NCBI RefSeq assembly: GCF_946188615.1
Contig: NZ_CAMHVK010000002.1
Location: 175,616-215,615, forward strand
Origin: Streptococcus mitis
GTDB taxonomy: Bacteria; Bacillota; Bacilli; Lactobacillales; Streptococcaceae
Direction of reading: 5' to 3'
Length of the DNA: 40,000 nucleotides
Position numbers and translations under genes: made by a program. The notes beneath the pieces are model-generated. The model was not told the origin of the DNA. It saw nothing but the letters and a program-made list of their open reading frames with translations, and made no database searches. Of this stretch, positions 14,249 to 39,808 are shown piece by piece (positions within the stretch are counted from its first letter, which is position 1; each line of letters starts with the position of its first letter).

Positions 14249-15163
14249 TTAAGGTGCGACGACAAATGCTAGGCCTTCGTGCTTAGTTTTGAATAGCAAT
14301 ACATCATCGTAAGATTGTTCATAGTACAAGTAGTTACCGCTTGAAGAAGCACTTGGTGCGTCAAGTCCTACAAATTCATATTTTTGTGGCGCTGCCATAC
14401 ACGGAATGTGAATCAAGAAGAAATGGATTTGTTTAGCAGTTGGGTCAACCTTAGCTCCATTTGTGAAGTTGTACAAGGTCTTCATACGGTCAGATGGAAT
14501 AGATGGCTCAATCGTCACATCGTCCAAACGACCAATAGAACGGTCAATAACTGTACCTTGTCCGTGGATATTGACTGTACGGCCAAATTGCTTGATGTTC
14601 TTGATCATGCGTTTAACTGCTGGTGTACAGAAAATAACACGACCTTCTGCTGGTACTCCAGCTTCGTCCATTTGTTCCATCAGCTCATCGAATGTTGCGA
14701 GGAAGTTTTCCTCAGTCAAATTCAATGACTTAATTTGTTTACTTTCTGTATCAAGTTCTTTCTTACGAGAGAACAATTTAGATACCATGAATTTATCCAT
14801 TTCTGGAACTTTTTCAGTATCGTTGAATGTTTTAGTGATGTTAGCAATGGAAGTAACATAGTTAGTTTCATCAACATCTGATGGGTCTACTAGTGTTGAC
14901 CAGTAACGCTCATTAGTCAATGTGTATGTTTCCCATTGGTTTTCATAGTTAGCGTCAATGTTCGTAATCGTGCGACGTGTACGGTCTTTACGTCCTTCTT
15001 TAATCAAAAGACGTGGTACTTTCACTTCTTTAGCGCCTGTGAACTTCAAAAGTGTGTTGGATGGAGAATTCCAAAGTTTTTGAGTGAATAACAGTCCGTT
15101 TTCACTGTAACGATTTTGCAAACCTTGTTGGTAAGCCTGTGCATAGTTCAATGTTGCTGGCAT
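14249..15163 (-). CDS. Major capsid protein
   Basis: 304 aa, immediately downstream of the GP20-type scaffold gene. Strong RBS. Confidence 0.7.
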   Translation of the reverse strand: MPATLNYAQAYQQGLQNRYSENGLLFTQKLWNSPSNTLLKFTGAKEVKVPRLLIKEGRKDRTRRTITNIDANYENQWETYTLTNERYWSTLVDPSDVDETNYVTSIANITKTFNDTEKVPEMDKFMVSKLFSRKKELDTESKQIKSLNLTEENFLATFDELMEQMDEAGVPAEGRVIFCTPAVKRMIKNIKQFGRTVNIHGQGTVIDRSIGRLDDVTIEPSIPSDRMKTLYNFTNGAKVDPTAKQIHFFLIHIPCMAAPQKYEFVGLDAPSASSSGNYLYYEQSYDDVLLFKTKHEGLAFVVAP

Positions 15164-15189: not shown

Positions 15190-15756
15190 TTATAGATCTG
15201 ACGTGAACGCATTAATCATCTGCGTTGTCAGGTCGTTAGCAACTGTTTCTTCTTGTGTTGCCCCTTGTGGCTTAGCACCAGCGATATGTGGTTCTACAGC
15301 CTTTTCTGAAGCAAATAAAAAGCCTTTAGATTCCTTCAAAGTCGTCAACTGTTCATCTAACCCAGTCACCGCTCCGTTGTCACCTAATCCCAATTTAGAC
15401 TTATCTAGTAGACTAGACACGATTCCAGCGTCATGAACCTTACCGCTTAAGTGCATTTCAATAGCATGATCTAGTTGCATTGTCTTGAGTTGTTGTTCAT
15501 GTTCCTTCTGTTGTGTCTTGTACTTGCTGTCCAAGTCTGAGTATTTTTGTTGTAAGTCAGCATTGCCTTCAGCGTCTTGTTTGAGCTGTTTCATGTCCTT
15601 ATCACGCTCTTTCAACTGGTCCTGCAAGCCCTTAGCATTATCTTCTGCAGCAGACACCTTCGCTTGTAGGTCCTGTGTTGATTTCCCATGTTCAGACATA
15701 ACTGCTTCAACTTGTTCTTCAGTCAATCCTAACTGTTCCAAAAATTTACGATTCAT
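15190..15756 (-). CDS. Capsid scaffolding protein (phage GP20 family)
   Basis: 188 aa. N-terminus MNRKFLEQLGLTEEQVEAVMSEHGK and a charged coiled-coil body are typical of GP20 scaffolds. Confidence 0.75.
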   Translation of the reverse strand: MNRKFLEQLGLTEEQVEAVMSEHGKSTQDLQAKVSAAEDNAKGLQDQLKERDKDMKQLKQDAEGNADLQQKYSDLDSKYKTQQKEHEQQLKTMQLDHAIEMHLSGKVHDAGIVSSLLDKSKLGLGDNGAVTGLDEQLTTLKESKGFLFASEKAVEPHIAGAKPQGATQEETVANDLTTQMINAFTSDL

Positions 15757-15846: not shown

Positions 15847-15876
15847 AAAGAAAACCGCCTCGATTTCGACGCGGTT
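15847..15876 (-). terminator. Intrinsic terminator after the small-ORF cluster
   Basis: Minus strand AACCGCGUCG-AAAU-CGAGGCGGUU followed by UUUUCUUU. Confidence 0.6.
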
Positions 15877-15880
15877 AGTT

Positions 15881-16093
15881 TTATAATTCGATTCCTTCGA
15901 TTTCTGATCGAACTTCTAGCCAGTATAAATACTGACCCATGGCACGTTTTTGATTTTTTAAAACTTCAATTGAGCATTTTGGCTCAAATTCAAGCGTACC
16001 AGCTTCGTATTTGATAATCATTTTATGTAATTTTGTATATTTATCCTTAAGCGAATTATACTCATCGATAAAGCGTTCTTTCCAATCTTCCAT
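15881..16093 (-). CDS. Hypothetical small helical protein (70 aa)
   Basis: ATG follows GAAAGGA. Located between the MuF/immunity genes and the scaffold gene, a moron-like position. Confidence 0.6.
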   Translation of the reverse strand: MEDWKERFIDEYNSLKDKYTKLHKMIIKYEAGTLEFEPKCSIEVLKNQKRAMGQYLYWLEVRSEIEGIEL

Positions 16094-16109: not shown

Positions 16110-16277
16110 TTACGTTTCTATAAGGATAACTTCGCAAGCTACCACTGAAATTCTTTTTACAACCAATTCACAATCCAAAAAATCGCTTGGATAACCTCCA
16201 TCCAAATCCTTGTTATTGTGGCAAACTGAAATGTCTTGTTGTTCATCTATCACTTCACAAAGTTCTTTAACTTTCAT
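16110..16277 (-). CDS. Hypothetical small protein (55 aa)
   Basis: Below the track cutoff. MKVKELCEVIDEQQD... Start is coupled by a TAATG overlap to the upstream mini-ORF. Confidence 0.4.
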   Translation of the reverse strand: MKVKELCEVIDEQQDISVCHNNKDLDGGYPSDFLDCELVVKRISVVACEVILIET

Positions 16278-16360
16278 TATTCTGATAACTCCAAAATTGA
16301 TTCTTCCGTATCTGTAAACTGTACAGCCTCAATCACTACTGGTTTTTTACGATATTTCAT
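16277..16360 (-). CDS. Mini-ORF (27 aa), possibly a truncated remnant
   Basis: MKYRKKPVVIEAVQFTDTEE... ATG follows AAAGGAG. The KKPVVIEAVQF start resembles N-termini of longer small phage proteins. Confidence 0.3.
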   Translation of the reverse strand: MKYRKKPVVIEAVQFTDTEESILELSE

Positions 16361-16383
16361 TTCTCGCTCCTTTCTAAGCATAA

Positions 16384-16410
16384 GAAAAAGCACTTAGAAT
16401 TACTAAATGC
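16384..16410 (-). terminator. Intrinsic terminator overlapping the stop codon of the putative immunity gene
   Basis: Minus strand GCAUUUAG-UAAUU-CUAAGUGC (one mismatch) followed by UUUUUC. Confidence 0.55.
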
Positions 16411-16738
16411 TTTCTTTTTTTGTCATTTCGATTATTTCTTTTAAACTTGGCTTAGTTTTCCAAATTCTAGTCCATGCTCTCATTTTTAAGAACGTCGGCA
16501 AATAAATGCCGTTTATCTTTGGCATTTCTTTAGATAAGTTATATTTTTTTCTAATTTCATCTTTATGATCCATTACGTACTGGTTACGAGGAAGGCAATA
16601 AAAGATACCTTCGCCAAAATAACTCAAATCTTCATCAGATATTTCAATAAGTTCTTCAGGTTTTACAAAAATAGACCTATTTACTCTATCTTCTCTCTTA
16701 GAAAAAATCTTTTGTACAAAATTTTTATCAAGACCCAT
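16403..16738 (-). CDS. Putative immunity protein for the upstream MuF-ART toxin (unknown family)
   Basis: ATG at 16738 follows GGAGG and overlaps the last 11 nt of the toxin gene. 111 aa and visibly AT-rich. The call is by position only. Confidence 0.45.
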   Translation of the reverse strand: MGLDKNFVQKIFSKREDRVNRSIFVKPEELIEISDEDLSYFGEGIFYCLPRNQYVMDHKDEIRKKYNLSKEMPKINGIYLPTFLKMRAWTRIWKTKPSLKEIIEMTKKESI

Positions 16739-18491
16739 TTTCCAACACCTCCAAACCATAAACAAGTAAGCCGTCTTCTGTCTCCTTTTTTGAAACAACA
16801 TTGTATTTCAAGTTGGGTTTCATCAGATATTCTTTTTCAGGGTTAAAGTCAGATAGTTCAGCAATATAAGCGCCTGTTTTTTGTCCTTTTCTAACAGTGA
16901 CTTCAAACAGAATATCTGCACCTTCGCCATCTATCGCAAACTCTCTAGCGTAATTCTTATCTAAACTAAAGGAAGTAAATGACTTGTCCAAAGTAAGTTT
17001 TTGACCAACTTCTAAATTCATATATCCTAAATCTTCCCCTAAAGCTGAAACAGAACCAGTACCTCTATACGCTTTAAACGATTTCTCGGGAGCAAAATCT
17101 GACAAAGCTTTTTCAAGGAAAGGAATTTTAGTTTTTGCTTCTCTAACTCGTTTCAAAGCAAGATCTAAATCGGCTTCACCGTGTTCTTCTAGCCAAAATT
17201 CTTCACTAAGTTTAAACGCTTTATCAATTCCAAAGCGTTTAATATTATTAAAATTGTGGTAATCACTTCCAGTGTAAGTGTAAATAGCATTCTTTTCTTC
17301 CTCTGTAAGCTCATTATACCACTTTTGATAAGACTTTTGTTTCTTAAAGAAGTCGTCTATTTCATTTGGTTTATCAGCTACAAAAACCTTGTCAGCCACT
17401 TCTGGCTTAGATTCCTTAACACCTCTAAGAACCGCTTCCCCTTCACGCTCCCATCCTGCAAAGATTTCGTCCAGAGAACGTTGCTCAGTGGCTAGTTTTA
17501 CTGAGCCGTCGTTTTGCAAGATATTGAAGTAAGGACTAGGTTTATCAGACTTAACTACAGGCCTGATAGTAGAACGGCAACGGACATGGAATGGAGGTGC
17601 GGTTCGACCTGGTTCATATTCCTTAACAGAATGAACCTCGTGATTTTCTAATCTGCAAATCTCACTTGTACGACTGTCTAATACCGCTACGATTTCGTAG
17701 TGGTCACCTCCCAACTCCTTGATAGTATCTAGCGTCGCAAGGTTATTATAAAAGGTCGTCTCAGTCCTAACAAGCGTATCTGCTCGATGATAGGCGACCC
17801 CTGTACGTTCAGAAAGAGCCCTAGCCATTCTATCAATAGACCAGCCACCTGTTAGGCCTTTATTGATTGTATCACTGATAGATTTATAAACAGCTGCATC
17901 ATGCCCCCATACATTCGTTGAGAAGGTTTTACCACTCCAGTTACTAGCCATCTTATGCTTAACTGCATCTACACCTAATATTGGTTTCTCTATGATTCCA
18001 AAATGTGCCAAGTTCTTAGCTTGATGGATTTTACCCTTGATGTAGACGTCACTCAGAGCCTCTGTGACCTTGTCATGTATGCCCTCTGGCTTTCCGTATA
18101 GCTCAGCTGTTAGACGCTCAATTTCGGCAAGCAAAGCCTCCTTGCGACTAATACGATGGCGATAACCCAAGGCGTCCAACAGAGGTGTCGGTGTGTCAGG
18201 ATTTAAGGCCATCTCACGGAATCTTTCAAGAGTTACATTCTTAAACTCTCTACGCTCTTTATCTGTCAGATATTGCTTGGCCTCTGCATGGGTCATTTTA
18301 TTATCAACTGCATACTTGGCATAGAACTTCTCAATCTCAGAAACCAGCTGGTGTTTATAATCTGCTAAGGATTGACCAATCTGGGCCATATACCTATCAG
18401 CAACTATCTGAGCGTTTTGTTCTTGTTGTAAAGCTCGCTCAGTCCAATACTCATCTATCTTTTTCTTGTTCTCGGTCGTCATGATCTTCAT
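16728..18491 (-). CDS. Head morphogenesis protein (Mu F / SPP1 gp7 family) fused to a C-terminal ADP-ribosyltransferase toxin domain
   Basis: N-terminal MuF signature LDSRTSEICRLENHEV...PPFHVRCRSTI. C-terminal ordered ART motifs YTYTGSDYHNFN, AYRGTG, FTSFSL, PEKEYLM (R-S-E type). Confidence 0.8.
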   Translation of the reverse strand: MKIMTTENKKKIDEYWTERALQQEQNAQIVADRYMAQIGQSLADYKHQLVSEIEKFYAKYAVDNKMTHAEAKQYLTDKERREFKNVTLERFREMALNPDTPTPLLDALGYRHRISRKEALLAEIERLTAELYGKPEGIHDKVTEALSDVYIKGKIHQAKNLAHFGIIEKPILGVDAVKHKMASNWSGKTFSTNVWGHDAAVYKSISDTINKGLTGGWSIDRMARALSERTGVAYHRADTLVRTETTFYNNLATLDTIKELGGDHYEIVAVLDSRTSEICRLENHEVHSVKEYEPGRTAPPFHVRCRSTIRPVVKSDKPSPYFNILQNDGSVKLATEQRSLDEIFAGWEREGEAVLRGVKESKPEVADKVFVADKPNEIDDFFKKQKSYQKWYNELTEEEKNAIYTYTGSDYHNFNNIKRFGIDKAFKLSEEFWLEEHGEADLDLALKRVREAKTKIPFLEKALSDFAPEKSFKAYRGTGSVSALGEDLGYMNLEVGQKLTLDKSFTSFSLDKNYAREFAIDGEGADILFEVTVRKGQKTGAYIAELSDFNPEKEYLMKPNLKYNVVSKKETEDGLLVYGLEVLENGS

Positions 18492-19878
18492 CTACCTTTT
18501 TGAAATTAGTTTCAGAGTATGGATCTTGTCCTTGTTCCTGTTGTTCTTTCAATCGTTCCTCAATTTGGGGTTGATACCATGGATGTTGTTCACGAATGCT
18601 TAGATCGTCTAAGATACCGATTGAGTTTACACAATCTTGAATAGCTTCAGACTCATTTGAAATGATGTCACGGTTAAATACATAAGTAAATTTAGATGAA
18701 TCAAACGCTACTCCTTTGTTAGCTGCATACTGTTCTACGAACCAAAGGAATTGCTTGATACCTTTTTGGAACTCATTTTCTAGCTCGTTACAGTCCAAAT
18801 CAAGATCTGTATAGCGCCATTTAAGAGCCTGACCGCTGGCATTACCTAGATTGTCATCTTGGGTATCAATGGCTCGTGCAGCCTCATACAAGAACTTACG
18901 AGAGCGTTCAATATCTGCTTCAACTCCGCTAGTATCATTGTCTGCTTGTAGGGTATCTACACCACCATCACTAGAAACCTTGATAGAGCGGAACTTATTC
19001 AGATTATTCATGAACTCGCCCAAGTCTGCGCCCTGATAGTTTTTTAAAACATAAATCAACTTCGGCATATCTGCCAGCATATCAGCATTAGTAGACATTT
19101 GAAGTTGAATATTATCAATCAGAGACTTGGTTTGGACTAAAAGACCGTCCTCATACTCGTTGTAGCGGAATGGAATCAGAGGCACTTTCTCCCAAGTATA
19201 AGGGATTCGTGTACCGTCTGCGTTGACATAATAAAAATTCCCCTTAGTCTCCTTGGATAGTGGGTTGAGTTCGAGGTGTGAACCTGTCCAGATATAATCT
19301 GTAATTCCTTGCTCATCGTAGTATTCTACAAAGGTTTTAGTCTTCTTTACTCCGCTTTCGTAGACCGCTTGATTATAGACACGCACAAAGGCTGATAATT
19401 CCAAATGACGCTCGTCTTTCCAAAAAGGGATAATCTGTTCGCTCGGGATTTTAAACAGGCGTAGACGGCCGTTCTCATCGTAATAAGGCAAGCCATAAGC
19501 TATCCCTTTCATCACTGCTTCCTTACCGAGTGACTTAATCGTAGATAAAAGGTCCTCGTCAAACACACTATCTAAAAAGTCTTGTGATTTTTCTCCTTCA
19601 AGCGAGATTGTCGGCTGCTTAGAAAACAAATACCCGACCTTCTGGTCTACCAACTTCTTAAACAAACCCAATTCAATCCTTGAGTTCGTCCGCCAGTCAA
19701 CATCTACTTTCTTATTTCGAATATCCGTGCGATTTCGATAGTAGTTGTAAGCTTCTTTCATTGTGCTTACTTTCTCAGAATTCTGGTGTTCTCTTATCTC
19801 AATCTCTAGTATTTCGTTTTGGGTTGTATTCTTAATCAACAACCGCCTGATTAACCATTTAAACCAATTACTCAACAT
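18451..19878 (-). CDS. Portal protein (SPP1 gp6-like)
   Basis: 475 aa, located between terL and the MuF gene. RBS GGAGAAGGAG. Confidence 0.85.
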   Translation of the reverse strand: MLSNWFKWLIRRLLIKNTTQNEILEIEIREHQNSEKVSTMKEAYNYYRNRTDIRNKKVDVDWRTNSRIELGLFKKLVDQKVGYLFSKQPTISLEGEKSQDFLDSVFDEDLLSTIKSLGKEAVMKGIAYGLPYYDENGRLRLFKIPSEQIIPFWKDERHLELSAFVRVYNQAVYESGVKKTKTFVEYYDEQGITDYIWTGSHLELNPLSKETKGNFYYVNADGTRIPYTWEKVPLIPFRYNEYEDGLLVQTKSLIDNIQLQMSTNADMLADMPKLIYVLKNYQGADLGEFMNNLNKFRSIKVSSDGGVDTLQADNDTSGVEADIERSRKFLYEAARAIDTQDDNLGNASGQALKWRYTDLDLDCNELENEFQKGIKQFLWFVEQYAANKGVAFDSSKFTYVFNRDIISNESEAIQDCVNSIGILDDLSIREQHPWYQPQIEERLKEQQEQGQDPYSETNFKKVDEDHDDREQEKDR

Positions 19879-19889
19879 TTCTCCTTCTC

Positions 19890-21146
19890 CTACCAGAATG
19901 ATATTCCTGGCTGTCTCATATCGTCTTCAAACGCATATCTTGTAGCGTCGATTGTGTGGTCGTTTACTTCTTCTAGCTTGGGTTTGGGATTTCCATCACG
20001 GTCAACTGCATAGTCGGCACTTTCGAACTCTCTTGCGATATTCGGTGTGCGCTCTGGATCTATCACAATGGCATCCAAATCATCCAACCAGCGCTCTCCA
20101 TACTCCCTACTGTCAGGACCTTTCTTAGCACCTTGAACAAGCGGAATATTCAGCTGCAGTTTTAACTCATCAATCGACTTAGGTTCTGCGCTATCACAGG
20201 TTATCATCTGAGATTGATAGCCTTTCTCACGGATTCTTTCAGCCAATTCACGGTTGCTAATCTTCACGCCATAAATCTCATCAATAGCATAGATAACACG
20301 TTTCTTCTTGTCGTAATGCCATCTTACAAAGGCCAGAGGGTCATTAGCATAACCGAAGTCGTTGCCTTGCCGAATGTTATCGAACCTTGCTATCTCCTCA
20401 TCTGTAATCTTGCGGAATACCAGATTTTCAAACGGTGCTACACCAGAACCGATAGCCTCACCCAGATACTCCCAACGGTAACGCTTCTCTGAACGTTCTC
20501 TCGTGGCCTCTGCTTCTTCTATGAATGCTTGGGATATATATGGGTTATCTAAGTAAGTCGAATGGTGTACGTGGGTGTTAGGAGGCTGTATGACACTCTC
20601 ATACTTCTTATTCACCCAAGACTGTTTTCTTTTTGGAGGATTGTAAGAGTAAAAGAATTTATAAAAAAGACCATCATCCAATTCTCCACGAAGAAGGGAG
20701 TTGGTGATTGTCTTTACTTCATCTTCAGTTTTGAACTCAGCAAGCTCTTCAATCCAACCGATTGCGAATGGAAAACGGCTGTCTTTCAAGGACTTAATAC
20801 GCTCTGGATCTTGTGCACCACGGAAGATAATATAATTTCCTCTTGGGATATAGGTTATCTTCAAAGGGGACTTATTAATCTTAAATAAATGACTAACCCC
20901 TTGCTCACTAATCGCCCATTTCAATTGCTCATAGACCGATTGTTCTAAGGTATTATCCGTCTTACGAATACACACGGCATTGACTGGATAGCGCATAATC
21001 AGTTGAATGATAGTGTGTCCGAGGTCGCTTGACTTACCAGAACCACGCCCACCCTTTTCAACTACATGTAAGATTTTAGGGTCGAATGCTGCACGCCACA
21101 TAGAGTAAAAAGCCTTTGGGATAAACTCACTCATTCTACGCTTCAT
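19890..21146 (-). CDS. terL: Terminase large subunit (PBSX-type)
   Basis: 418 aa. Walker A GGRGSGKS near the N-terminus. C-terminal nuclease-like acidic motifs. Overlaps terS. Confidence 0.9.
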   Translation of the reverse strand: MKRRMSEFIPKAFYSMWRAAFDPKILHVVEKGGRGSGKSSDLGHTIIQLIMRYPVNAVCIRKTDNTLEQSVYEQLKWAISEQGVSHLFKINKSPLKITYIPRGNYIIFRGAQDPERIKSLKDSRFPFAIGWIEELAEFKTEDEVKTITNSLLRGELDDGLFYKFFYSYNPPKRKQSWVNKKYESVIQPPNTHVHHSTYLDNPYISQAFIEEAEATRERSEKRYRWEYLGEAIGSGVAPFENLVFRKITDEEIARFDNIRQGNDFGYANDPLAFVRWHYDKKKRVIYAIDEIYGVKISNRELAERIREKGYQSQMITCDSAEPKSIDELKLQLNIPLVQGAKKGPDSREYGERWLDDLDAIVIDPERTPNIAREFESADYAVDRDGNPKPKLEEVNDHTIDATRYAFEDDMRQPGISFW

Positions 21147-35364: not shown

Positions 35365-35559
35365 TTATTCCTCCAATAATTGTTCAAGACGAACATTCAA
35401 ATAATTTGCAATTGAATTTAAAGTAGTCGCTGACGGCGAACTGGTATTCCATTTGCTGATAGTACCGTTACCTAAATCGAGATCTTTTTCAATTCGATAA
35501 ATCGAAATCCCTTTGTCCAAGGCGATTTGTTTTATTCTGTCATAAATCACATCCAACAC
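35365..35559 (-). CDS. Cro-like XRE-family HTH regulator
   Basis: 64 aa, ISIYRIEKDLDLGNGTISKWN HTH, divergent from the cI-like gene. The true start may be GTG 35550, 8 nt after GGAGG. Confidence 0.75.
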   Translation of the reverse strand: MLDVIYDRIKQIALDKGISIYRIEKDLDLGNGTISKWNTSSPSATTLNSIANYLNVRLEQLLEE

Positions 35560-35832
35560 CTCCTTCTATTAGAAAATTTTATAAGAAAATAAGCACTAAA
35601 TGTTGACAAATAATAGAAAATAGTCTATTATTAAGGTATACAAAATACAGCTATATCATAAAAGTTAGATATAACAAAAAATCTTGGCGGATTATTCTAT
35701 TTGTATTTTACTTTATGTTAGCTGGTCAACTAGCTTACAAAATAAGTATAACTGAAAATTTTCTATTTGTCAACAATTTGATAGAAAATTTTACATTATT
35801 TTGTAAAGCCTTATTTTTGGAGGTTTTTACAC
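35560..35832. promoter_or_regulatory. Genetic switch region: two face-to-face promoters and repeated operator-like sites
   Basis: Plus strand TTGACA (35603)-17-TATTAT (35626). Minus strand TTGACA (35773-35768)-17-TATACT (35750-35745). 12-bp inverted repeat TGTTGACAAATA. TAGAAAATTTT occurs 3 times, plus ATAGAAAAT. Confidence 0.6.
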
Positions 35833-37328: not shown

Positions 37329-37367
37329 CCCCACGCTCTCAAAACTTTGGCGAGTCTGAGCGTGGGG
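37329..37367 (-). terminator. Strong hairpin with a U-tract only on the minus strand
   Basis: CCCCACGCTC, 19 nt, GAGCGTGGGG (10 bp perfect). The minus strand is followed by AUUUUUUAAAUUUU. The plus strand has no U-tract. Confidence 0.55.
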
Positions 37368-37442
37368 ATATCCTGGATAGTAAAAGGCATTAAAAAGCCC
37401 TCTTTACTATACCCATTTTATCAAAAAAGTGAGGTAAATACA

Positions 37443-38594
37443 ATGTGGATGGAAGAACTTTCTAACGGAAAATACAAATTTTTTGAACGATATAGAGACC
37501 CGTATACCGAGAAGTGGAAACGAGTGTCGGTTACTCTTGATTCTGGCTCAAGCAGGGCAAAGAAAGAAGCTCAGAAACAACTGGACGAGAAAATAGCAGA
37601 AAAGCTCCAAAGTCTTACTACTACAGATATGCTTTTTACAGACGTGCTCAACGACTGGTGGGAACTTCATAAAAAGTCAATCAAACCTTCTACCATAAAG
37701 ACCATGGTCTATTCCGTAGATGAAGTAAAAGAGACTTTTGCGCCTGACGTGAAAATAAAAAATATCACTGCCAAATACACCCAGCAGTACTTTACGGACT
37801 CGGAAGAAAATCATATCAAACTCAAAAAGCAAAAGTCAGTACTAAGCATGGTTTTTAAGTATGCGCTTGATATGGAACTAGTAGATAGCAATCCTGTTCA
37901 GCGTGTAAGACTTCCTAAAAAGGTTGTTACATACGAAAATATGGAACAGATTGAGGATAAGTTCCTTGAGCAAAGTGAATTAAAAAGGCTTCTTAAAGCG
38001 ATGAAAAACTACAATCGGGGCTATCACGTTGCTCGTATGGCTGAATTCATGGCGCTGAACGGCTGCCGTGTCGGGGAAGCTGGGGCTCTGAAGTTTGAAA
38101 ATTATGATAAAGAAAATCGCACTATCACCATCAATGGCACTTTAGATCCAACCAGAAAAGGTTCTGAGGGTATTAAGACCACACCTAAGACCTTATCATC
38201 TATCAGAGTAGTTGACCTAACAAAAAAAGAAATTGAAATCATTGAAGAATTCATAGAGTTACATAAACTAAGAAAGAATACAAACCCAAACTATAAAGAT
38301 ATGGGATTTATATTTGTATCAGCCAATGGAATTCCCATTCATAAATCAAGTATCGGCAAGCTCATGAAAAATGCAAACGCCACTTTAAAGAAGCCAATCA
38401 ACAAACCACTTCACCCACATATACTACGTCATACACTAATCAGTACGCTTGCTGAAAACAATATTCCACTAAAGGCCATCACGCAAAGAGTTGGGCATAA
38501 AGATAACGGAAAGACCACAATGGAAATCTATACTCACGTAACCAAGAACATCAAGTCGAAAGTTGTTGATGTACTAGATAAAATTTATAAATAG
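37443..38594 (+). CDS. int: Tyrosine site-specific integrase
   Basis: ATG at 37443 (MWMEEL) follows GTGAGG. C-terminal HPHILRHT and EIYTHV (catalytic Tyr) motifs. It is the last phage gene before host DNA. Confidence 0.9.
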   Translation: MWMEELSNGKYKFFERYRDPYTEKWKRVSVTLDSGSSRAKKEAQKQLDEKIAEKLQSLTTTDMLFTDVLNDWWELHKKSIKPSTIKTMVYSVDEVKETFAPDVKIKNITAKYTQQYFTDSEENHIKLKKQKSVLSMVFKYALDMELVDSNPVQRVRLPKKVVTYENMEQIEDKFLEQSELKRLLKAMKNYNRGYHVARMAEFMALNGCRVGEAGALKFENYDKENRTITINGTLDPTRKGSEGIKTTPKTLSSIRVVDLTKKEIEIIEEFIELHKLRKNTNPNYKDMGFIFVSANGIPIHKSSIGKLMKNANATLKKPINKPLHPHILRHTLISTLAENNIPLKAITQRVGHKDNGKTTMEIYTHVTKNIKSKVVDVLDKIYK

Positions 38595-39136: not shown

Positions 39137-39637
39137 TTAAGCTGCGTCTTCTTTGTTGTCTGCAACCGCTTTGACTGCAAGAGCAACGTTGCGCACTGGC
39201 GCTTGAAGTACAGAAAGGAGCATAGAAAGAAGTCCTTCGCGGTTTGGAAGAGTTGCAAGAGCAAGAATCTCTTCTTTAGATGCGACAGCGCCTTCGATTG
39301 CACCACCTTTGATTTCAAGTGCTTCAGCGTTTTTAGAAAAGTCGTTCAAGATTTTCGCTGGTGCGATAACATCTTCGTTAGAAAATGCTACTGCAGATGG
39401 TCCAACAAATACAGATGCAAGATCTTCAAGACCAGCTTTTTCAGCTGCACGACGCAAGATTGAGTTTTTAATAACTTTATACTCAACTTCGCTTCCACGA
39501 AGCTCACGACGAAGAACTGTATCTTGCTCAACTGTCAAACCACGAGCGTCTACAACGACGATAGATGCAGCAGCTTTCATTTTTTCAGCTACTACGTCAA
39601 CTAGTTCCGCTTTTTTAGCAATAATTGCTTCACTCAT
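39137..39637 (-). CDS. rplJ: 50S ribosomal protein L10
   Basis: [46 protein letters not shown]... is typical L10. ATG at 39637 follows GGAGGTG. Confidence 0.95.
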
Positions 39638-39808
39638 TAGTGTGTTCACCTCCGTTATTATTTTGCTTGGGGAATTTTTCCAAAAGAAAAACGCGCCCAA
39701 ACCTAGACACGAAAGTACAATACGCTTCTTTTTACATGATACGTTTTGTCCTCGGTAGGATACTTATGAGTCGAGCTCCCCTACTGTCTTAGGCAGTTTT
39801 TTCAAACC
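39638..39808 (-). promoter_or_regulatory. rplJ 5' leader (probable L10-leader autoregulatory RNA)
   Basis: A ~170-nt untranslated leader lies between the promoter and rplJ. Firmicute rplJ operons carry an L10(L12)4-binding leader. Structure not verified here. Confidence 0.45.

Follow-up and report, generated by a model that had tools for sequence, protein, structure and literature searches.

Toxins fused to MuF head-morphogenesis proteins were predicted in 2012 (Zhang, PMC3482391) and defined as a family in 2017 (Jamet, PMC5576092); in the latter set, 14% of the proteins carry ADP-ribosyltransferase (ART) domains. These toxins are widespread in prophages of human-associated Firmicutes, and the roles under consideration are those of an injected effector, an interbacterial weapon and a host-directed factor. 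MuF proteins are thought to be present in two to three copies per head and to bind viral DNA (PMC12226406, citing a paper on the ejection protein gp44 of phage 80alpha), and a survey of MuF-fused ARTs of the Alt/VIP2 family published in 2022 proposed that they are packaged in the head (PMC9503650). Only two MuF toxins, Apk2 and Bxa, have been studied experimentally. Bxa, the MuF-ART of the Bacteroides stercoris prophage PhiBxa, ADP-ribosylates arginines; a small binding protein, Bsi, neutralises the toxin, and a hydrolase, BAH, reverses the modification (PMC11699363). Here we describe a MuF-ART locus in a prophage of Streptococcus mitis, located in a 40,000-nucleotide (nt) stretch of contig NZ_CAMHVK010000002.1 (positions 175,616 to 215,615; assembly GCF_946188615.1), which is referred to as the window. 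With a probability that we put at roughly 0.7, this is a MuF polymorphic toxin locus with a packaged, arginine-type ART that is paired with an inhibitor, the product of a 111-amino-acid (aa) gene directly downstream of the toxin gene.

The original prediction, made from the letters of the DNA, had read this gene (Table 1) as a MuF protein with a C-terminal ART toxin domain. The MuF signature (LDSRTSEICRLENHEV...PPFHVRCRSTI) and the ART motifs that it quoted (NAIYTYTGSDYHNFN, AYRGTG, FTSFSL and PEKEYLM) are all present, and both domains are recovered by Pfam profiles above the curated cut-offs: Phage_Mu_F (PF04233) with E = 8.6e-13 and 49.5 bits against a cut-off of 29.6, and ADPrib_exo_Tox with E = 1.3e-14 and 54.4 bits against 23.4. 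The match to a further profile, ART (PF01129), is borderline (23.4 bits, cut-off 22.3). Since PHROG 595 spans aa 14-572 at 3e-89, i.e., nearly the whole protein, the complete fusion represents an existing phage protein family. The label of this PHROG reads “head maturation protease”, though PHROG 595 is the MuF-ART family itself; no protease family was detected by Pfam among the eight proteins scanned from terminase to capsid. PHROGs 115, 2841 and 4728 (minor head or head morphogenesis proteins) match within aa 2-426. According to NCBI-type annotation and to relatives, the gene starts three codons downstream of the mechanical start, which yields a protein of 584 aa; this exact protein is found on 16 contigs (NCBI/UniRef). 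In two loci with another backbone (L003:5386-7122 and L004:2177-3913) the MuF-ART is called as two genes of 186 aa and 373 aa, which could be due to a split gene or a frameshift and accounts for the many database proteins of 372-375 aa described as “MuF+ART”.

The ART part is modelled with confidence. For aa 355-587, AlphaFold gives a predicted local distance difference test score (pLDDT) of 90.6 and a predicted template modelling (TM) score of 0.85, with an N-terminal helical bundle followed by a beta core. In a Foldseek search of the PDB, the model matches solved ARTs of the C3/Vip2 type with E-values from 1e-12 to 1e-9 and target-normalised TM-scores of 0.66-0.77. Plx2A, C3bot1/2, Certhrax, Vis and Vip2 are found at E ~1e-11 and a probability of 1.00, and CDTa/iota and an ART effector of Listeria are among the other matches; an ART fold, as foreseen in the original prediction, is thus predicted with high confidence. 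Among viral models (BFVD), many of the matches are ART-containing proteins named minor capsid, head morphogenesis or portal protein, and one neighbour is annotated “ADP-ribosyltransferase domain and MuF-like fusion protein”.

The catalytic set R476, S507/S509 and E552-K-E554 is invariant in 37 unique homologues (64-100% identity). R476, S507/S509 and E552/E554 are also invariant across three ART subtypes, of which the ART described here is subtype 1 and which share only 36-44% identity. R476 was assigned as the catalytic arginine because it is invariant and located on the first core strand of the model (aa 471-479). The STS and ExE motifs align with those of Vip2 (phmmer); phmmer alignments to Vip2 and Certhrax were rejected for placing the arginine, since they put it off by about 15 residues. 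An S-x-F-x-x-E-x-E stretch at aa 547-554 resembles the ADP-ribosylating turn-turn (ARTT) motif, and its S-D-F-N-P-E-K-E is similar to F-A-S-E-K-E of Vip2. In the R-S-E clade of ARTs, E-x-E instead of Q-x-E points to arginine as the acceptor. Arginine is consequently the probable acceptor of ADP-ribose here, as judged from the E-x-E of the ARTT motif and from Bxa. With a pairwise dN/dS (ratio of non-synonymous to synonymous substitution rates) of 0.09 among 45 unique cassettes, the ART is under purifying selection, and both its residues and its model make it look functional.

The gene that follows the toxin begins at an ATG at 16738 and not at the mechanical open reading frame (ORF) start at 16801. 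A GGAGG (Shine-Dalgarno, SD) sequence at 16748-16752, 9 nt upstream of this ATG, lies within the toxin gene, and the 11-nt overlap between the two genes is present in every ART-bearing cassette examined (90 loci passed the overlap test). Synonymous-site conservation is raised only at the SD and overlap and near aa 391-402. The association of the two genes is strict. A scan of IMG/VR with the 111-aa protein returned 45 loci, and wherever the upstream DNA suffices the same ART precedes with the 11-nt overlap, except in two cases. A scan with the ART returned 68 viral and eight genomic loci; here, a member of the 111-aa family comes after each subtype-1 ART for which downstream sequence is available. 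The pairing is specific for the subtype: without exception, subtype 1 precedes the 111-aa family and subtype 2 a 121-aa protein, and a 110-aa protein follows subtype 3. Like the toxin, the 111-aa gene is under purifying selection (dN/dS 0.14).

No match to the 111-aa protein was found in Pfam, PHROG or PADLOC. A filter-free HMMER profile search gave ten clusters among 1.84 billion representatives, all close relatives or fragments bar one weak match (E = 2.5e-4) in a 1339-aa protein. The family is therefore small and restricted. The exact 111-aa protein occurs on 237 contigs. An anti-phage defence system was considered and rejected, as PADLOC gives no match and the gene lies within the head module. 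Several plus-strand ORFs over the region (e.g., 16565-16846) run antisense to conserved genes in AT-rich DNA and were classed as chance ORFs.

Two contigs, the two exceptions in the scan with the 111-aa protein, allow the partner gene to be seen apart from its toxin. In L020 and L029 (3850-4340 in each; IMG/VR 7000000653_000028 and 7000000350_000028), ART residues ~385-572 are missing owing to one and the same 566-bp deletion, and in each a stop codon stands exactly at the junction between MuF and linker. The SD and the 111-aa ORF are intact despite the loss of the ART. The contigs are 8% apart in DNA. Between them, the 111-aa gene shows 0.178 synonymous (pS) and 0.033 non-synonymous (pN) differences per site, i.e., a pN/pS of 0.19. 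To judge by their sequences, these are natural toxin-less alleles that carry only the putative immunity gene. The loss of the ART together with retention of the 111-aa gene fits the logic of a toxin-immunity pair and makes a role as a chaperone only less likely.

The ART and the 111-aa gene move together as an exchangeable cassette, as comparison with relatives makes plain. The GenBank phages closest to the window are Streptococcus phages MissE2 and Javan308, the latter being a prophage of S. mitis B6. To either side of the cassette, the identity with MissE2 reaches 95-98%, whereas 16399-17429 is swapped for unrelated DNA encoding a non-ART C-terminus and a different, 103-aa ORF. In the viral contig L005, the MuF N-part is ~30% identical and the DNA is 97.9% identical only over 16368-17421. 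The swapped cassette that the original prediction had suspected is thus real. Homology with loci of unrelated backbone begins at 17421-17424, and homology with MissE2, which has the same backbone, stops at 17430. An alignment of MuF homologues, which the prediction had proposed for locating the breakpoint, places a sharp boundary between conserved and variable sequence after residue 354 (...GWEREGEAV): up to this residue the MuF module is 97.8% identical to MissE2 and 89% to Javan308, and beyond it the proteins diverge. In the linker that follows, residues 355-363 are disordered in the AlphaFold model (pLDDT < 50), and KESKPEVxDKVFVADKPNEIDDFFKKQKSYQKW is common to the three ART subtypes. The subtype-1 cassette is found on five clusters of MuF N-parts less than 60% identical to each other, and one more homologue has a Phage_min_cap2 N-terminus.

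The original prediction had based the swap on the AT-richness of the ART part and the next gene. The shift is real (0.33 in the cassette vs 0.44 in the MuF part; in detail, 0.439 for the MuF N-part, 0.352 for the ART part and 0.292 for the 111-aa gene), but the tract is wider than the cassette and runs to ~15900, crossing genes that relatives have in conserved form. GC content can therefore delimit the swapped segment at its upstream edge only, and both edges were taken from the comparison with relatives. The prophage as a whole has a mean GC content of 0.393 (standard deviation 0.028), and 3.8% of equal-sized segments are as low as the cassette. The AT-rich 70-aa and 55-aa genes are placed outside the cassette because they are conserved with MissE2 whatever the toxin type.

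At the 3' edge, about 100 bp (16299-16401) recur at 83-92% identity in many phages of S. pneumoniae (IPP) and S. mitis that otherwise have no sequence in common with the window, and homology with Javan308 resumes at 16320-16401. An intact, 87-aa version of the PGDYG-type gene, whose start is left as a remnant here, is found in L176. Because this conserved stretch abuts the 3' edge of the cassette, it may act as a downstream homology arm for cassette exchange. The stop codon of the 111-aa gene lies, like the 3' boundary of the cassette, within a segment (16385-16415, minus strand) in which an AT-rich hairpin of 13 pairs is followed by a run of T and which matches a terminator-like consensus.

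The same backbone carries many other C-terminal domains. The MuF module of the window type is present in 75 IMG/VR loci (most at 87-99% identity, a few at 57-64%). The 69 complete C-termini found on it (most N-parts 87-99% identical, a few 62-64%) fall into 12 clusters, which match the clusters of downstream ORFs almost one to one. The clusters comprise the three ART subtypes, a WLM/SprT-like HExxH domain, PBECR-type nucleases and several domains of unknown type; a truncated form and a short MuF make up the rest. About ten alternative C-terminal domains follow ...GWEREGEAV (L126-L199, L001, L002), each with its own small ORF; they include the WLM/SprT-like HExxH type (n = 18), a PBECR3 nuclease and weak matches to PBECR2 and DUF3626. 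Three of them (262, 166 and 160 aa) lack a meaningful Pfam match, the 160-aa one giving only sub-threshold noise.

The distribution of the subtype-1 pair is narrow. Among 185,579 GTDB species, each represented by one genome, relatives of the ART were found only in S. oralis, S. mitis and unnamed Streptococcus. Subtype 1 itself was encountered solely in S. mitis, S. oralis and phages of these species. Neither the subtype-1 ART nor the 111-aa partner was found in any of 50,697 GenBank phage records, in which the nearest to this ART are Javan308 (36.5%) and Enterococcus phage phiFL4A (gp35, 29%). Word-index searches for homologues of the ART gave 20-30 proteins, mostly fragments, and the locus scans were far more informative.

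Taken as a packaged toxin with its inhibitor, the locus would work as follows. After induction, the late operon would produce the MuF-ART, and the gene overlap with the internal GGAGG, both of which are visible in the DNA, would couple translation of the 111-aa protein to that of the toxin. The 111-aa protein would bind and block the ART, so that the producer survives until assembly ends; this is suggested by the strict pairing, the subtype specificity and the analogy with Bsi and Bxa. By analogy with SPP1 gp7, the MuF part would dock on the portal and a few copies would enter the procapsid. Portal docking and procapsid entry are established for SPP1 gp7. On the next infection, the MuF-ART would leave the head with the DNA and without the inhibitor, for which gp44 of phage 80alpha and Alt of phage T4 are precedents. 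In the cytoplasm of the recipient, the ART would use NAD+ (nicotinamide adenine dinucleotide) to ADP-ribosylate arginines of bacterial proteins, and the outcome would be arrest or reprogramming of cells that lack the inhibitor.

Several points weigh against this reading. No published experiment places any Gram-positive MuF-ART in virions or shows it entering cells. Among solved structures, those closest to the model belong to toxins with eukaryotic target proteins, which makes a target in either kingdom conceivable. As for the partner, its AlphaFold model is poor (pLDDT 47), it belongs to no known immunity family in Pfam, PHROG or PADLOC, and its pairwise divergences are only loosely correlated with those of the ART (r = 0.39); specificity within a subtype is therefore probably broad, if the two proteins interact. 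Moreover, the gene lies in a late operon, with no minus-strand promoter-like site within ~450 nt upstream, which may leave lysogens without “immunity” as classically understood.

The structural neighbours invite a different use of the enzyme. The ART may be a Bxa-like, host-directed factor: set free when the induced prophage lyses the streptococcus, it would modify proteins of human mucosal cells such as actin, myosin or Rho-type proteins and aid colonisation, and the 111-aa protein would only shield the producing cell until lysis. The single MuF-ART characterised so far, Bxa, has non-muscle myosin II of epithelial cells as a substrate and favours colonisation of the gut (PMC11699363), the closest folds (C3, Vip2, Certhrax, Plx2A and CDTa) all target eukaryotes, and human mucosa is the habitat of S. 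mitis and S. oralis. We nevertheless consider a host-directed role rather unlikely. A translocation or receptor-binding component is lacking, the PDB is biased towards eukaryote-acting ARTs, and Bxa is antibacterial as well. An enzyme that requires a tightly coupled inhibitor must be able to attack components of the bacterial cell, and the sister cassettes on the same backbone encode nucleases and peptidase-like domains typical of interbacterial toxins.

The exchange of cassettes bears in the same way on the idea that the ART is a non-lethal takeover enzyme. Like T4 Alt, it would be injected with the DNA and would modify RNA polymerase or other machinery to the advantage of the phage, or disarm a defence, and the small protein would only delay its activity. 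Such an enzyme would share its delivery route with the packaged toxin favoured here and differ only in the consequence for the cell. T4 Alt sets the precedent, an enrichment of MuF-fused, head-packaged ARTs of the Alt/VIP2 type in myoviruses has been argued from comparative genomics (PMC9503650), the present prophage has a tail sheath, and an RNA polymerase ADP-ribosylase is among the BFVD neighbours. But a non-toxic modifier has no need for a dedicated, subtype-specific and translationally coupled partner, nor is it expected to be exchanged, at one and the same position, for cassettes encoding nucleases and peptidases; in L020 and L029, moreover, the ART was dispensable enough to be deleted. 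A takeover function is therefore rather improbable.

The strict co-occurrence and the translational coupling of the two genes would fit equally well with a 111-aa protein that is not an inhibitor but a chaperone or adaptor, helping to fold the ART or to load it into the procapsid, and the absence of a match to any known immunity family speaks for this as well. What makes this quite unlikely is the state of the gene in the two diverged ART-less contigs, where it is intact, has kept its SD and evolves under constraint; a chaperone without client should decay. In addition, the presence of a separate partner for each unrelated toxin type on one backbone is a hallmark of immunity genes (PMC5576092). 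Finally, it is very improbable that the domain is mainly an NAD+ glycohydrolase that depletes NAD+ rather than a protein transferase, since, although ART-fold NADase effectors such as Tne5 exist (PMC13285283), the full R, S-x-S and E-x-E set with its ARTT-like stretch is typical of arginine-transferring enzymes such as Vip2, and Bxa, the closest characterised MuF-ART, transfers to arginine.

If the 111-aa protein is an inhibitor, one may ask how it relates to the partners of the other ART subtypes. A short motif is common to the partners of subtypes 1, 2 and 3 (SDEDLSYFGEGIFY, SDDELHRIGKAVFY, TDEQVAFLGNAIFF), at 16598-16639 of the window (aa 34-47 of the 111-aa protein) and in the genes L101:3596-3961 and L002:4000-4332. 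It follows the pattern [ST]-D-[DE]-x-(L/V)-x-x-(F/I/L)-G-x-(G/A)-(I/V)-F-(Y/F). The comparison of the families is weak, with an hmmsearch E-value of ~5e-4 on a tiny database and an hhalign probability of 23% over 22 columns. It is conceivable, though doubtful, that the 111-, 121- and 110-aa proteins are diverged members of one undescribed family of ART inhibitors, and that phages or prophages with the inhibitor only neutralise the ARTs of superinfecting relatives; the persistence of the small gene after deletion of the ART would then reflect conflict between phages. If so, the ART cassette would be a pair for attack and defence between competing streptococcal phages, beyond self-protection of the producer.

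The host element is a temperate, contractile-tailed prophage of a mitis-group Streptococcus. Besides the genes listed in Table 1, it encodes a helix-turn-helix repressor with an ImmA/IrrE partner, an antirepressor, a tail sheath and a tape-measure protein. The head module, entirely on the minus strand, is ordered terminase, portal, MuF-ART, three small ORFs, scaffold and capsid; the portal is the expected docking partner of the MuF protein. Between the scaffold and the crAss001_48-like gene, MissE2 and Javan308 (L001:3049-3477 and L002:3049-3477) have an extra 430 bp with a plus-strand ORF of 68 aa, which are missing at 15847/15848 of the window. The lowest GC content of the window (~0.30) is found at 35400-35700, between the divergent antirepressor and repressor genes, and presumably corresponds to the lysogeny switch region.

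Table 1. Features of the MuF-ART locus and of the surrounding prophage (positions in the window)
Feature	Position	Strand	Remarks
MuF-ART fusion gene	16728-18491	-	Open ORF, 587 aa; alternative start 18482 gives 584 aa
Conserved MuF N-terminal module (aa 1-354)	17430-18491	-	Ends ...EIFAGWEREGEAV; shared with MissE2 and Javan308; Pfam MuF core aa 204-309 (17565-17882)
Pre-toxin linker (aa 355-384, LRGVKESKPEVADKVFVADKPNEIDDFFKK)	17340-17429	-	5' cassette edge, from homology edges in relatives
ADP-ribosyltransferase domain	16785-17339	-	Pfam aa 385-569; fold runs on to aa 583
ART catalytic codons	R476 17064-17066; S507 16971-16973; S509 16965-16967; E552 16836-16838; E554 16830-16832	-	Codons checked
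111-aa gene, putative cognate immunity (ART inhibitor)	16403-16738	-	ATG 16736-16738; overlaps toxin stop (16728-16730) by 11 nt
Mobile toxin-immunity cassette (linker, ART and 111-aa gene)	16399-17429	-	~1.03 kb; GC 0.33
Conserved 3' flank	16277-16401	-	Ribosome-binding site and 27-aa ORF MKYRKKPVVIEAVQFTDTEESILELSE (16277-16360), remnant of PGDYG-type gene start
55-aa ORF	16110-16277	-	ATG overlapped by TAA of 27-aa ORF
70-aa crAss001_48-related gene	15881-16093	-	PF21825, 6.5e-20
Scaffold	15190-15756	-	Pfam/PHROG
Major capsid protein	14249-15163	-	Pfam/PHROG
Portal gene (SPP1 gp6-like)	18451-19878	-	Directly 5' of MuF, overlaps MuF start; SPP1_portal 3e-74 (Pfam), PHROG 64
Large terminase (TerL)	19890-21146	-	Pfam/PHROG
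Integrase	37347-38594		Marks temperate element
Chromosomal rplJ	39137-39700		Adjoins prophage

The locus confirms and illustrates the current picture of MuF toxins and does not change it. What is added are the exact limits of a cassette, the breadth of its exchange in mitis-group phages, an unannotated partner family and natural variants with a deleted ART. This material is suited to asking if MuF cargo is in fact packaged and ejected, how an arginine-type ART acts in a Gram-positive cell and how far the specificity of the small inhibitors goes.

Among the known systems, the MuF toxin family as a whole provides the closest framework, and all testable features that define this family, as well as those that define R-S-E ARTs, are present in the locus. 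The MuF domain, N-terminal and encoded beside portal and terminase, is followed by a variable C-terminal toxin domain, an ORF of less than 150 aa lies directly downstream, and the carrier is a temperate Firmicute phage. This corresponds to the literature cited in the original prediction, namely that MuF proteins of temperate Firmicute phages carry variable toxin domains followed by immunity genes (Jamet 2017, PMC5576092). The differences are that the ART subtype and its 111-aa partner are uncharacterised, and that the cassette limits, its transfer among five MuF lineages and its immunity-only derivatives are documented here.

Compared with C3, Vip2 and the iota toxin (PF03496; 1qs2, 1g24, 4fk7, 4xzj, 5urp), the predicted model has the same fold, as the TM-scores given above indicate, and the protein shares the Y-x-x-(I/F)-N-x-x-x-R helical motif, the Y-R strand, the S-x-S and the ARTT loop with E-x-E; in particular, FNPEKEYLM resembles FASEKEILL of Vip2. 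In contrast, identity is 14-24%, the STS motif reads S-F-S, and instead of being secreted or having a binding component as its partner, the ART forms part of a phage head protein.

Alt of the virulent phage T4 is a stand-alone protein that is targeted to the prohead and cut by the prohead protease. It is not known to have a MuF domain, a cognate inhibitor gene or any polymorphism of cassettes. The present ART differs in being fused to MuF. What the two have in common is an ART of the Alt/VIP2 family that belongs to the capsid of a contractile-tailed phage, by prediction in our case, and is proposed to act at entry (PMC9503650).

The (p)ppApp synthetases of the Apk2 type, known from prophages of S. 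pneumoniae and Bacillus (PMC10083569, PMC12226406), have the same architecture and occur in closely related streptococcal prophages; immunity proteins are encoded next to them, and one of these is a non-enzymatic binder. Their toxin, however, is a RelA/SpoT-type pyrophosphokinase, and a hydrolase-type immunity protein is also present.

Bxa, finally, is likewise a MuF-ART encoded in a head-morphogenesis region; it depends on its catalytic glutamate, and the present protein has an E-x-E motif. In both cases a small ORF is adjacent, the Bxa counterpart being Bsi, which binds and neutralises the toxin, and the Bxa family is also polymorphic, with alternative toxin domains. Bxa is larger (869 aa, with the ART at 621-869, compared with 587 aa here) and comes from a host of another phylum. 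It also has a second, enzymatic immunity protein, the ARH1-type BAH, whereas neither an ARH nor a macro domain was detected by Pfam in the four ORFs downstream of the present toxin and in 20 other ORFs scanned in the prophage.

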